A stretch of 62,843 nt of DNA from an uncultured Gammaproteobacteria bacterium. Lineage in GTDB: Bacteria > Patescibacteriota > Microgenomatia > Daviesbacterales > UBA10151. A model generated the notes under the pieces. That model saw only the letters and a program-made list of their open reading frames with translations. It searched no databases and had not been told where the DNA came from. Within the stretch, counting starts at the first letter, position 1. Every line of letters begins with the position of its first letter. Positions 1,497 to 3,871 of this stretch are shown piece by piece. The stretch lies in contig CAZVEX010000006.1 of the NCBI GenBank assembly GCA_964625535.1, positions 1 to 62,843 on the forward strand, read 5' to 3'. The translations under genes were made by a program, and so were the position numbers.

Positions 1497-3431
1497 ATGG
1501 CTACCTCAAAATATTCAGCAGAACAAATTCAGGTTTTGGAAGGGTTGGAGCCGGTTAGAAAGCGCCCGGGCATGTATATTGGCTCCACTGACCTTCGTGG
1601 ACTCCATCACCTTATTAAAGAAGTAGTTGATAACTCCGTGGATGAAGCCTTGGCTGGTTTTGCCAAAAATATTTGGGTTATTTTACACGAAGGAAATTAT
1701 ATTACTGTGGCGGATGATGGCAGGGGTATTCCCGTAGAAAAACACCCCAAAGTGGGAAAGAGTGCATTGGAAGTTATCATGACCACCCTTCATGCCGGAG
1801 GAAAATTCGGCGAAGGCGGCTATAAAGTTTCCACCGGTCTTCATGGAGTAGGAGTCTCCGCTGTTAACGCGCTTTCGGAATATACCAGGGCTACTGTCAG
1901 GCGCGAAGGCAAAGAGTATTTTCAAGAATATGCCAAAGGTAAACCCAGGGCTAAAGTCGCACCTTTAACAAAAGATGCGACAGCGCCATTTACCACCAGC
2001 TTTAAGTGGAGCGCCAAAACAGGCACCATGATTAGCTTCCTGGCTGATAAGGATGTATTTTCCACCATCACACCTGATTTTGAAAGGCTGGAGAAACAAC
2101 TTAAACAGGTGGCATACCTGGTGGCAGGGATCTTTTTCCATGTTTTTGATGAAAAAAGTCAACAGGAACGCCATTTTTATTTTCAATCCGGTCTTGCTAC
2201 CTTAATTAAGCATTTAAATAAAAACAAGGCCCTGGTGCATCCCGAACCGATATTAATTCATCAAGTCATCGAAGGAGTGGATGTGGAAGTAGCCATCCAA
2301 TACAATGACAGCTTTGTGGAAAACGTGGAAAGTTTTGCCAATGTGGTGCCAACAACAGAAGGCGGCAGTCACTTAACAGGATTTAGAATTGCCTTAACCC
2401 GCGCCATCAATGATTATGCCAGAAAAAGTGAGGCCTTAAAAGAAAAAGATGAAAACTTAACAGGCGAAGATGTCAAGGAGGGATTAACGGCTGTTATTTC
2501 CGTCAAAATGGACTCGGATAAAATCCAGTTTGAGAGCCAAACCAAGGAAAAGCTGGGCAATGCCGAGGTTCAACCGATTGTGGCCCAAGTGGTCAAAGAC
2601 GGTTTGGACATGTTTTTTGAGGAAAACCCGTCTGATGCACGCTCCATTTTGGAAAAAGTCTTGCTGGCTCAAAGATCCAGAGCGGCGGCCAGAGCTGCCA
2701 AAGACGCGGTTATTCGAAAAGGGGCTTTGGAAGGAATGACTCTTCCGGGAAAACTGGCAGATTGCCAGGAACGGGATCCGTCCGGGGCAGAGCTTTACAT
2801 TGTGGAAGGGGATAGCGCCGGAGGATCAGCCAAACAAGGCCGGGATCGAAAATTCCAGGCCATTTTACCTCTTCGGGGAAAAATTTTAAATACCGAAAGA
2901 GCCCGTTTAGATAAAATCCTGGAATTTGAAGAAATTAAGGCTTTAGTGATAGCTTTGGGCACAGGCATAGGGGATACGGTTGATTACGGCAGGACTAGAT
3001 ATCACAGGATTATCATCATGACTGATGCAGATGTTGACGGGGAGCACATTAGAACTTTGCTTCTGACATTTTTCTTTAGATATTTGCCAGAGGTAATTAC
3101 CAAAGGCTATCTGTACATTGCCCAACCCCCTTTATATAAAATCCAAAAGGGTAAGGATTTAAATTATGCTTATTCAGACGAAGAAAAAGAAACTGTTCTG
3201 AAAAAAATAGGCGATGGACCTATAATCTCTCGTTACAAAGGTTTGGGGGAAATGAACCCTGATCAGCTTTGGGAAACCACCATGAATCCGGAAAATAGGG
3301 TGTTAAAACAAGTCACTGTTGAAGATGCTATTTCAGCAGATGAAGTCTTTACCATGTTAATGGGAGATGAGGTCCCTCCCCGCAAACGCTTCATCCAAAC
3401 TCATGCGAAGCTCGCTACGCTGGATATATGA
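1497..3431 (+). CDS. gyrB: DNA gyrase subunit B
   Basis: GHKL ATPase ([15 protein letters not shown]), TOPRIM motifs VEGDSAGG and [14 protein letters not shown]. Confidence 0.97.
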
Positions 3432-3452
3432 TTTATGAACAATGAGCAATGA
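3425..3452 (+). repeat. 7-bp array (NNNATGA) x4 upstream of the four-helix-bundle gene
   Basis: TATATGA TTTATGA ACAATGA GCAATGA; overlaps the gyrB stop. Confidence 0.75.
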
Positions 3453-3470
3453 ATCTGATACAATCAGAAC

Positions 3471-3857
3471 ATGACTCAAGTAACTATCAAATCATTTACT
3501 GATTTGAACGTCTGGAAAGAAAGCCATAAGCTTGTCTTAATGATCTACAAAATCACAAACAGTTTCCCTTCAAAAGAAACATACTCTTTAATCGATCAGA
3601 TGAGAAGAGCTGTAGCATCTATCACTGCCAATATAGCTGAAGGATTTGGGAGACAAACTTATAGAGAAAAAGCACAGTTTTACTATTTGGCACAAGGATC
3701 ATTATTAGAATTGAAAAATTTCATATTAATAGCGAAAGATGTAGGTTATTTAAAAAGTGCCGACTTCAATCAATTAGCAGATCAGGCTAATATTTCTCAT
3801 AAACTGCTGCAAGGGTTTATTCAGAAAACTAAAACATTCATAAATCATAAATCTTAA
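3471..3857 (+). CDS. Four helix bundle protein (23S rRNA intervening-sequence protein family)
   Basis: SFTDLNVWKESHKL, FP.KETYSLIDQMRRAVASITANIAEGFGR, A.GSL.EL; 128 aa. Confidence 0.9.
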   Translation: MTQVTIKSFTDLNVWKESHKLVLMIYKITNSFPSKETYSLIDQMRRAVASITANIAEGFGRQTYREKAQFYYLAQGSLLELKNFILIAKDVGYLKSADFNQLADQANISHKLLQGFIQKTKTFINHKS

Positions 3858-3870
3858 ATCATAAATCAAT
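3838..3870 (+). repeat. 7-bp array (TCATAAA) x~5 downstream of the four-helix-bundle gene
   Basis: TCATAAA TCATAAA TCTTAAA TCATAAA TCAAT; reverse complement of TTTATGA. Confidence 0.9.
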
Positions 3871-3871
3871 T

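Follow-up and report, generated by a model that had tools for sequence, protein, structure and literature searches.

Ribosomal RNA (rRNA) intervening sequences (IVS) that bear an open reading frame (ORF) have been called selfish elements since the 1990s. In the IVS of the Coxiella burnetii 23S rRNA gene, two or three copies of GACAGAT plus GACAGAA, in a number that varies among strains, precede the S23p ORF, and the terminal repeats form a 28-bp stem which RNase III cuts at the first repeat (PMC4990558). ORFs of the same family, PF05635, occur in insertions of the 16S and 23S rRNA genes of bacteria of the candidate phyla radiation (CPR) (PMC11270868), and PF05635 genes within cas operons were taken in a 2013 study as functionally associated with the latter (PMC3936711). 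Here we describe a PF05635 gene in a 62,843-nt stretch of DNA (contig CAZVEX010000006.1 in full, hereafter the window), where a small ORF for a four-helix-bundle (4HB) protein, bracketed by two inverted arrays of 7-nt units (the arms), is located between gyrB and murC. We consider it probable that positions 3432–3864 of the window are a copy of a compact, widespread selfish cassette of the same kind as the ORF-carrying 23S IVS, lying in a protein-coding operon.

Paired arrays of this general type have been reported from the genome of Geobacter metallireducens, published in 2009, where 24, 21 and 8 pairs of three to five tandem 7–9-nt units on opposite strands are found between operon genes. 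These paired sites (classes 1–3; e.g. at proB-proA and moaA-mosC) were read as sites for a global regulator, integration host factor (IHF) or HU, and pairs present in one species were absent from its relative (PMC2700814). In a survey of 7,006 prokaryotic genomes tandem heptamers were the commonest intergenic repeat, with a function stated to be unknown (SPADE, bioRxiv 10.1101/309039). We found no paper that links the PF05635 family in general to heptamer arms. The arms may resemble the short tandemly repeated repetitive (STRR) heptamers of intergenic DNA in Nostocales cyanobacteria.

The gyrB-murC junction with and without the cassette

The four ATGA-N3 repeats that make up the 5' arm, and likewise the pattern of the 3' arm, are found a single time in the window, and neither turned up in 100 dinucleotide shuffles (for coordinates see Table 1). 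Tandem Repeats Finder (TRF) gave the 3' array a score of 55 (4.4 copies, 91% matches) and the 5' array, the weaker of the two, a score of 31. Together the arms (3423–3454 and 3836–3867) form the top-ranked inverted repeat of the 62.8-kb window, 32 nt long and 75% complementary, with a 17-nt core (I19) that is 94% complementary. A preliminary description of the locus had taken the right array to be the reverse complement of the left one. The 3' arm is indeed the reverse complement of the 5' unit GATTTAW, and TATATGA and TTTATGA are good complements of TCATAAA; they are the only ones, as the two inner left units share just the ATGA core. It was also correct in that the left NNNATGA array overlaps the gyrB stop, which lies inside unit 1, and that the right array spans the stop codon of the 4HB ORF itself (TAA, 3855–3857, in unit 3). 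Its statement that the right array ends at the murC ATG is nearly exact, the last full unit lying 6 nt before the ATG at 3872. From the terminal gyrB codons GAT ATA TGA come both the first heptamer-like unit and the outermost portion of the RNA stem predicted below.

In order to compare this junction among relatives, we used a MurC-based scan with one genome per species, which gave 80 loci; in about 50 of them gyrB is directly upstream of murC, the gap ranging from -4 to 1678 bp. The junction is empty in eight species. It reads GATATATAA + 7 nt + ATG in five of them, the spacer is 6 or 8 nt long in two, and in the remaining one the genes overlap by ATGA. The cassette was present at the junction in just one other genome (L031, identical to L001/L002). 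In a tree built from GyrB and MurC the closest relative of the window, its sister L013, lacks the cassette at the junction, and the two genomes that carry it do not group as sisters. With eight empty junctions against two occupied ones, the gene is not fixed at this locus, so that the first of the two refuting outcomes named in the preliminary description does not hold. Comparison of the junctions establishes the cassette as an insertion relative to an ancestral arrangement of gyrB stop, 7 nt and murC ATG.

We infer the bounds of the element from the empty sites (GATATATAA + 7 nt + ATG) in conjunction with the junction repeats of cyanobacterial plasmids described below. They coincide with an imperfect 4-nt direct repeat, ATGA (3428–3431) and ATAA (3861–3864). 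Read by the plasmid model, the window would consist of host GATAT-ATGA, an element ending in AAATC-ATAA, a 7-nt spacer and murC. The corresponding spacers before murC in the empty-site relatives are TCTCCAT, TTACCCC, TCTCTTT and TCTCCCT.

The 5' arm and leader of the window and of L001 are identical at 45 of 48 positions, and the 3' arms are identical save for one 1-nt indel. Between the same two copies the ORF displays a dN of 0.086 and a pS of 0.71 (synonymous sites saturated), i.e. a dN/dS of ∼0.04. The 4HB protein must therefore be functional, and, as judged from these substitutions, it has been kept by purifying selection; selection constrains the nucleotides of the arms, which are 94–100% identical across a saturated synonymous divergence, far more tightly than silent sites, even though whole units are quickly gained and lost.

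The gap between gyrB and murC is a generally variable spot, with more than 20 unrelated ORF families in other species. Examples (L012–L091) include a nucleotidyltransferase in eight species, methyltransferase-like ORFs, and antitoxin-like ORFs in L021 and L037. In L019 and L025 the 3' end of gyrB, CTTGATATATAA, recurs some tens of nucleotides further downstream, in L019 around a hairpin, a pattern that looks like the footprint or target duplication of another element. A GC-rich motif, AGTCCTGAGCGAAGTCGAAGG, opens the inserts right after the gyrB stop in L017, L030 and L041, with a similar one in L029, and is probably another repeated element. Where other cargo fills the gap (L036, L042, L047, L052, L080), a -10-like box, ATCATATAAT, is positioned 10–15 nt before the murC ATG, suggesting that murC behind such cargo has its own promoter; the window lacks the box, its 3' arm lying directly next to murC.

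Table 1. Coordinates of the cassette and its flanking genes in the window
Feature	Position	Strand	Remarks
gyrB	1497..3431	+	Pfam DNA_gyraseB, Toprim, HATPase_c, GyrB_C; upstream host gene
5' side of predicted stem	3422..3439	+	encloses gyrB stop; pairs with 3837–3854
5' arm	3425..3452	+	TATATGA TTTATGA ACAATGA GCAATGA (four NNNATGA units); unit 1 holds gyrB stop TGA 3429–3431
Putative inserted element, 433 bp	3432..3864	+	5' arm, leader, 4HB ORF, 3' arm
Promoter-like site	3436..3464	+	TGAACA-17-TACAAT, TG extension; weak; ends 6 nt before ATG
4HB ORF	3471..3857	+	128 aa, PF05635 / TIGR02436, Avd-like
3' side of predicted stem	3837..3854	+	minimum free energy (MFE) and centroid fold, inverted repeat, RNAduplex
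3' arm	3838..3868	+	TCATAAA TCATAAA TCTTAAA TCATAAA TCA (four TCWTAAA units and a partial one); full units 3838–3865
Host spacer	3865..3871	+	ATCAATT, 7 nt; length equals spacer of five empty-site relatives
murC	3872..5080	+	Mur_ligase, Mur_ligase_M, Mur_ligase_C domains; downstream host gene

Heptamer arms and PF05635 genes at other loci

Arms of this kind also border homologs that are 70–84% identical to the 4HB protein and whose surroundings are unrelated, for example type-IV-secretion pilin clusters or a neighbouring Trans_reg_C gene. A scan of metagenomes retrieved 67 non-identical cassettes, down to 35% identity, and arrays were called on 60 independent ones. The mean lag-7 self-match score of the cassette flanks was 0.77, as compared to 0.43 in 428 control gene flanks, and a score of at least 0.8 was reached by 47–48% of the cassettes versus 0.2–1.6% of the controls; among periods 4–11, none but 7 was enriched. 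By the rule used to delimit the arms, period-7 arrays stand on both sides of the gene in 87% of the 60 cassettes, with medians of 4.1 and 4.4 units, which bears out the association with homologs elsewhere that had been set as a test. In 48 of 54 cassettes the gene upstream has the same orientation, and the gap to it has a median of 36 nt; the arms therefore fill the spacer, giving the cassettes their 'wedged' look.

One could suppose that low-complexity sequence of an AT-rich spacer gave rise to the arrays by chance, given that the left array is weak by TRF (31) and that period-7 arrays are found elsewhere in these genomes. This is refuted by the shuffles, the rank of the inverted repeat, the arrays at 87% of the homologs and the 94–100% conservation between the window and L001, and we attach practically no credence to it.

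The heptamer depends on the protein clade: it is GATTTAW in the clade of the window and GTAAYNN, GGAATTA, GGGTAAC or GATTCAA in others, each unit consisting of a conserved 5–6-nt core plus variable positions. (Single-linkage clustering of unit types chained them into one cluster and was replaced by a listing per protein clade.) In 41 of 55 cassettes the consensus units of the two arms are reverse complements with at most one mismatch, and the mean unit mismatch rises from 1.0 within cassettes to 2.7 between cassettes and 2.9 in the same-strand comparison. Across the compared sequences, the units of one arm thus vary together with those of the other and with the protein clade. On the sense strand of most of 65 copies G prevails over C in the 5' arm, and C over G in the 3' arm. 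Stop codons in all three frames are enriched in the arms (46% versus 12% upstream, sense strand); the ATGA core of the window's 5' arm yields TGA and ATG in all three frames. Three-frame stops are far from universal, and we treat them as a by-product. Arrays of GGAATTA and TAATTCC occur in three successive intergenic spacers beside the 4HB cassette of L128 (1400–3357), some of them as solo arms.

Copies on plasmids of Cyanobacteria and Bacteroidota share the design. The 5' and 3' units are GGGTGTA and TACACCC in Calothrix (after an integrase gene), AGTCAGG and CCTGACT in Nostoc and Trichormus (between hypothetical genes), GGAGATA and TATCTCC in Picosynechococcus (between cmr2 and cmr3), and GGTTTAA and TTAAACC in Riemerella (after a Fe-S assembly gene). 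Pseudanabaena, with long direct AAAAGCT/AAAAGCC arrays, and Gemmatirosa, with period 8, are exceptions to this layout. In the former (L175, Pseudanabaena galeata plasmid, cas6-4HB-cas4) AAAAGCT x16 and AAAAGCC x9 are in direct orientation, and inverted AGCTTTT/AAAAGCT pairs occupy the neighbouring spacers around the cas genes. In the latter (L180, the GC-rich Gemmatirosa kalamazoonensis plasmid) the period-8 arrays include CTCCTGCC x4 downstream. A period of 7 is thus not universal, which may be compared with the 8-/9-nt classes of Geobacter.

Several of the plasmid copies can be set against closely related empty sites. Plasmid C of Trichormus was compared with seven plasmids whose flanks are ∼97% identical: the empty site reads ...AAAAAGTAA|TTAACAAATAAATATG and the occupied one ...AAAAA[GTAA TAAATCAGAATTCAG...4HB...GAGTTCTTCTTT]GTAATTAAC..., the insert being 428 bp long and the GTAA repeat including the upstream stop. 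The Scytonema copy equals that of Trichormus minus 14 bp (two units) in the 5' arm, and Nostoc C052 retains a remnant of this insert type with only the 5' arm and ∼30 codons. At a second site, N. punctiforme pNPUN01, which carries the cassette, was compared with Nostoc C057 and C052: the empty site reads TTCTAG|GTTATG and the occupied one (A)TTCTAA[...]ATTCTAA|TTATG; two occupied copies have almost identical coding sequences and differ by 21 nt (three units) in the 5' arm and by 7 nt (one unit) in the 3' arm. Picosynechococcus PCC 7003 is occupied at a position where PCC 7002 (88% identical) has 12 nt between cmr2 and cmr3. With gyrB-murC, these make four occupied/empty comparisons that uphold the idea of insertion at gene junctions. 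Finally, Nostoc ATCC 53789 carries an ORF-less insert of ∼135 bp, with two inverted arms ∼75 nt apart and a 6-bp ATTTAA duplication, that is missing from three related plasmids.

It follows from these alignments that the arms belong to the inserted DNA and not to the target, that they change by whole units and that they also occur as ORF-less pairs. The plasmid inserts are located at the stop codon of the upstream gene or immediately behind it. The well-resolved junction repeats (GTAA, ATTCTAA, ATTTAA; 4–7 nt) all end in TAA. Their variable length could reflect microhomology rather than target-site duplication. Two candidate cases of recent transposition were rejected: an identical pair in Calothrix is a segmental duplication with identical flanks, and the six contigs with protein P0059 have identical arrays.

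Within ∼0.9 Mb of DNA there are 75 inverted period-7 array pairs, 54 of which enclose a 4HB gene by tblastn; most of the others enclose 4HB genes of plasmid loci. Back-to-back ORF-less pairs are present in L061 (434–507, at the holB-gyrB junction) and in L144 (400–495). In unbiased Microgenomates DNA (601 kb) we counted 24 period-7 arrays versus 1 in shuffles, period 7 being the sole over-represented non-codon period. Eighteen of the 24 are solo arrays inside long ORFs (e.g. L021 371–407 and L030 1864–1898, both in gyrB; 16 more in L012–L091), and therefore cassettes are not the explanation of all heptamer arrays. These solo arrays resemble the 49 intragenic and intergenic 4x GGACCGG elements of Geobacter metallireducens (PMC2700814). 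The window itself contains two solo arrays of exact heptamers, at 352–389 (in the holB-like ORF 21–620) and 44122–44157 (in ORF 43009–45471, minus strand), namely CGACTAC x5 and ACTTTGC/ACTTTAC x4.6, in frame within long ORFs; both were rejected as cassettes, the inverted partner being absent. The linker occupied by the holB array has another sequence in the L001 ortholog and AAATCAA heptamers in L065.

The breadth of these contexts bears on whether the 4HB gene might be a resident host gene, coding for a regulator or RNA-binding factor whose arrays are its own operators or translational control sites, with a patchy distribution arising from deletion and transfer. The strong purifying selection would suit such a gene, as would the arrays that overlap start and stop codons, the Shine-Dalgarno-like purine runs of some clades, the promoter-like site in the left arm and the interpretation of similar arrays as regulator sites by the Geobacter authors. 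We nevertheless hold it to be quite improbable, since the module recurs in dozens of unrelated contexts, within rRNA and cas operons among them, occupied and empty sites can be matched to the base with junction repeats, ORF-less copies insert alone, and truncated remnants exist.

The encoded protein and the surroundings of the cassette

The 4HB protein matches Pfam PF05635 (E = 7.8e-36; 123 bits versus a cut-off of 33.8) and TIGR02436 (113.9 bits versus 24), which places it in the family that includes the proteins of 23S rRNA IVS, S23p copies being located in rRNA IVS, as the preliminary description had stated. The family motif RxxxSxxxNxxEG (PMC3936711) is present in the ORF as RRAVASITANIAEG, and S50, N54, E57 and G58 are invariant in 19 homologs. 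An AlphaFold2 model (pLDDT 85) consists of four helices; the C-terminal residues 124–128, coded by the 3' arm, are disordered in it. The best Foldseek matches in the PDB were XCC0516 (2GSC; TM 0.82/0.93) and BT_0352 (2RLD, 'S23 ribosomal protein family'; TM 0.72–0.88), and a phmmer comparison with 2GSC gave 8e-19. The next matches, 4DWL and 8UB7 (TMt 0.83–0.87), are the Avd proteins of diversity-generating retroelements (DGRs), so that the proposed structural kinship to Avd is corroborated. Crystal entries of the homologs hold five chains each. The ORF matched no PADLOC defence model and, in PHROGs, only Avd (9.5e-8); no phage record and no viral contig matched.

Avd, which binds RNA, is a partner that the DGR reverse transcriptase cannot do without (bioRxiv 10.1101/2023.10.23.563531). 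The gene might on these grounds be regarded as an orphan avd, left from a degenerate DGR after the loss of the reverse transcriptase and of the template and variable repeats; the Avd fold, the PHROG match and a weak match to the DGR-Avd equivalog NF033474 (22.2 bits, E = 1.3e-4) point that way. The last score is far under the 80-bit cut-off, there is no reverse transcriptase nearby, the closest structures (XCC0516 and BT_0352) are not of DGR origin, and hundreds of homologs share the arm design without DGR context. We regard a DGR ancestry of the cassette as very improbable.

The window is AT-rich (GC content 41%) and belongs to a CPR bacterium from groundwater, of Microgenomates/Daviesbacteria type. 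Its closest MurC relatives are metagenome-assembled genomes of Daviesbacteria (60–71% identical), and the reads that hold it come from groundwater metagenomes. Genes within ∼8 kb of the cassette are housekeeping ones (holB-like, gyrB, murC, Mur ligases, a hydrolase, an aminotransferase and FemAB), and over this distance we found no reverse transcriptase, integrase or transposase, nor intI, TnpA or TnpB. A search of 3300–4000 against Rfam returned no rRNA and nothing meaningful at E≤10; the window copy is thus flanked by gyrB and murC and is not located inside a 23S or 16S rRNA gene. The promoter-like site of the left arm was one of 4 sites in a consensus scan for which 2.3 were expected, and its TGAACA and TACAAT hexamers are kept in L001; a transcript starting from it would possibly be leaderless. 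Downstream of the cassette, a 758-aa ORF (5050–7326, minus strand) is a fusion of a ∼450-aa N-terminal region, with only a weak match to DUF6395, and a MurD-like ligase (Mur_ligase_M and Mur_ligase_C), and overlaps the 3' end of murC convergently by 31 nt.

Predicted RNA pairing, proposed movement and relation to known systems

Both the MFE and the centroid fold of the RNA 3405–3890 close the cassette by the stem given in Table 1, which has 17 bp with one 1x1 mismatch and a duplex energy of -19.1 kcal/mol (RNAduplex); the folds and duplex energies thus predict, in line with the preliminary description, that the arms can pair in RNA and loop out the ORF. Among the cassettes the inter-arm duplexes average -24.1 kcal/mol, as compared to -13.3 for shuffled arms and -16.6 for cross-cassette pairs, and in 92% of cassettes at least 20 bases are paired in the predicted duplex. 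A copy on the Azospirillum lipoferum sequence L179, which was among the plasmid hits, is located inside a 23S rRNA gene according to Rfam. In its arms (units GACGGAT GACAGAG GACGGAG GACAGAA) 41 pairs, five of them G·U, form a duplex free of mismatches, 32 bp of which are an unbroken helix.

In the mechanism that we propose, the element would be integrated as DNA, at the stop codon of a gene upstream or close to it and beside a TAA-ending sequence, and leave a short direct repeat; copies would look 'wedged' between genes for this reason. On the host transcript the arms may pair as a 17–30-bp stem. Such a stem serves as the RNase III substrate in rRNA copies, where the element is thereby cut out; in operon copies, by analogy, it would shield the insert and perhaps separate it from the cistrons on either side. 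The best candidate for an arm-binding factor is the 4HB protein, because it is the sole product encoded by the element; its relatives form pentamers and bind nucleic acid. The ∼4–5 units per arm, which would match five subunits, are suggestive. As for the claim that the locus is a transposase-free mobile cassette, it stands insofar as the 4HB gene is the sole ORF, no transposase is encoded and the cassette is a unit of insertion.

Several observations weigh against this reading. The duplex energy in the window is near the mean of ordinary gene flanks (-17.8 kcal/mol), and arms of CPR copies in mRNA context pair to only ∼75–80%. Mismatches between CPR arms display no G·U excess (51 of G·U type versus 45 of A·C type), and the order of unit variants is not mirrored between the arms (mean z 0.26; 0/51 significant). 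Their complementarity therefore derives from the shared 5–6-nt core and not from position-wise compensation; covariation of the RNA beyond this core was accordingly dropped as a candidate. A series of motifs recognised by a protein accounts for the CPR pairing data no less well than an RNA helix under selection. None of the RNA runs searched contained the window gene or a widespread CPR cassette, and processing is argued by analogy. Moreover, the gyrB stop is inside the predicted stem, so that a cut there could damage the gyrB mRNA. With regard to movement, the direct repeat of the window is only 4 nt long and imperfect; because the gyrB-murC gap takes up so many unrelated cargo genes, presence or absence at this junction is not on its own proof of active transposition. 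Neither an empty-site nor an excision joint was found in the four groundwater metagenomes that hold the window, and no near-identical copies were found at different sites of one genome, L004 and L005 having two divergent copies each and the window one. In the runs X1–X4 the depth over the 3'-arm segment (3820–3881) is 10–20x the contig baseline. The depth is raised because many unrelated contigs, dozens in these source metagenomes, match 3836–3868 only; near-identical arms are therefore common to many cassettes of the community.

Part of this evidence would fit arms that act at the DNA level only, as terminal arrays bound by a recombination protein (the 4HB pentamer or an enzyme of the host or provided in trans), with pairing in mRNA as a functionless by-product. 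Short direct repeats flank the inserts, the ORF-less one included; the CPR arms lack G·U bias and mirrored order; the core of the unit is conserved and the unit type tracks the protein clade; and the ∼4–5 units per arm go along with homolog crystals of five chains. The rRNA copies speak for a role of RNA pairing at least in that context, as they form perfect helices with G·U pairs and as RNase III cleavage there is experimental. There is no transposase or integrase in the cassette or within 8 kb. To our knowledge, an Avd-like helical bundle has no DNA-cleaving chemistry. A purely DNA-based function of the arms is in our opinion possible, if rather unlikely.

The element might also spread via RNA, if the RNase III-released molecule were bound by the Avd-like protein and copied back by a reverse transcriptase acting in trans, of DGR or group II intron type. 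The fold shared with an RNA-binding partner of reverse transcriptases, the precedent of the stem and RNase III, and the G-rich 5' and C-rich 3' arms would agree with this route. The absence of a reverse transcriptase within 8 kb and the failed DGR-Avd cut-off (22 versus 80 bits) argue against it; the target-site-like repeats, found on the ORF-less insert too, point to integration of DNA, and nothing ties copy number to the presence of a reverse transcriptase. Spread through an RNA intermediate is, in our judgement, improbable.

Taking up again the selfish cassette with DNA-level insertion and pairing arms, one may go further. PF05635 genes with arms, together with the ORF-less pairs, might constitute an unrecognised pan-bacterial mobile class, in which the pentamer reads about one unit per subunit and directs TAA-adjacent insertion without a canonical transposase; one mechanism would then underlie rRNA IVS, the Geobacter sites and a large share of the heptamer excess. 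We offer this wider proposal tentatively and consider it unlikely in its entirety. The general rule, i.e. a PF05635 gene with inverted heptamer arms, clade-specific units, insertion at stop codons and ORF-less miniatures, appears not to have been described before. It joins the question of how S23p/IVS elements move to that of the intergenic heptamer excess, and may help to explain the latter. Cultivable cyanobacteria offer occupied, empty, truncated and ORF-less alleles whose differences amount to the element itself, which opens S23p/IVS movement to ordinary experiments. For annotators, PF05635 genes in cas, mur, conjugation or other operons are probably passengers and not functional partners.

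The cassette may finally be compared with known systems. It shares with DGR Avd a small, basic protein with a four-helix-bundle fold from a pentamer-forming superfamily; identity is only ∼10–14%, the NF033474 cut-off is failed and there is no reverse transcriptase within 8 kb, and bracketing by heptamer arms has not been reported for DGR avd genes. Like integron cassettes and IS200/IS605 elements, it is a promoter-poor, co-oriented single gene with a short specific target and folded inverted repeats. Unlike them, it has no single 3' attC-like site and no intI, TnpA or TnpB, and complementarity is between its ends and not within each. Miniature inverted-repeat transposable elements (MITEs) and other elements with terminal inverted repeats (TIRs) are likewise small, with inverted termini, short direct repeats, ORF-less derivatives and intergenic insertion, whereas the termini here are tandem 7-nt arrays of freely changing number, the junction repeats vary between 4 and 7 nt and end in TAA, and the 'autonomous' form encodes only a helical bundle with no known transposase fold. 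As far as the published description allows comparison, the class 3 unit of Geobacter, MTYCTGA, is the 3'-arm unit of Nostoc and Trichormus; in contrast to the cassette, the class 3 pairs at moaA-mosC and cbiG are ∼80–100 bp apart, too close for an ORF, and the published account links the Geobacter pairs neither to PF05635 nor to mobility (PMC2700814).

The S23p IVS of Leptospira and Coxiella share a PF05635 ORF, the size (428 nt in Coxiella, 433 bp here), inverted ends of about four heptamers in strain-variable copy number, the lack of a recombinase and the designation as selfish. They differ in that the cassette lies between protein-coding genes and that its arms pair over 17 bp with one mismatch and then decay, with no G·U signature; furthermore, its ORF is under strong purifying selection, unlike the Coxiella ORF, which is reported to be decaying. 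As far as can be read from the aligned copies, the RNA helix is perfect where rRNA processing needs it and relaxed in operon copies, and the design is the same in both.

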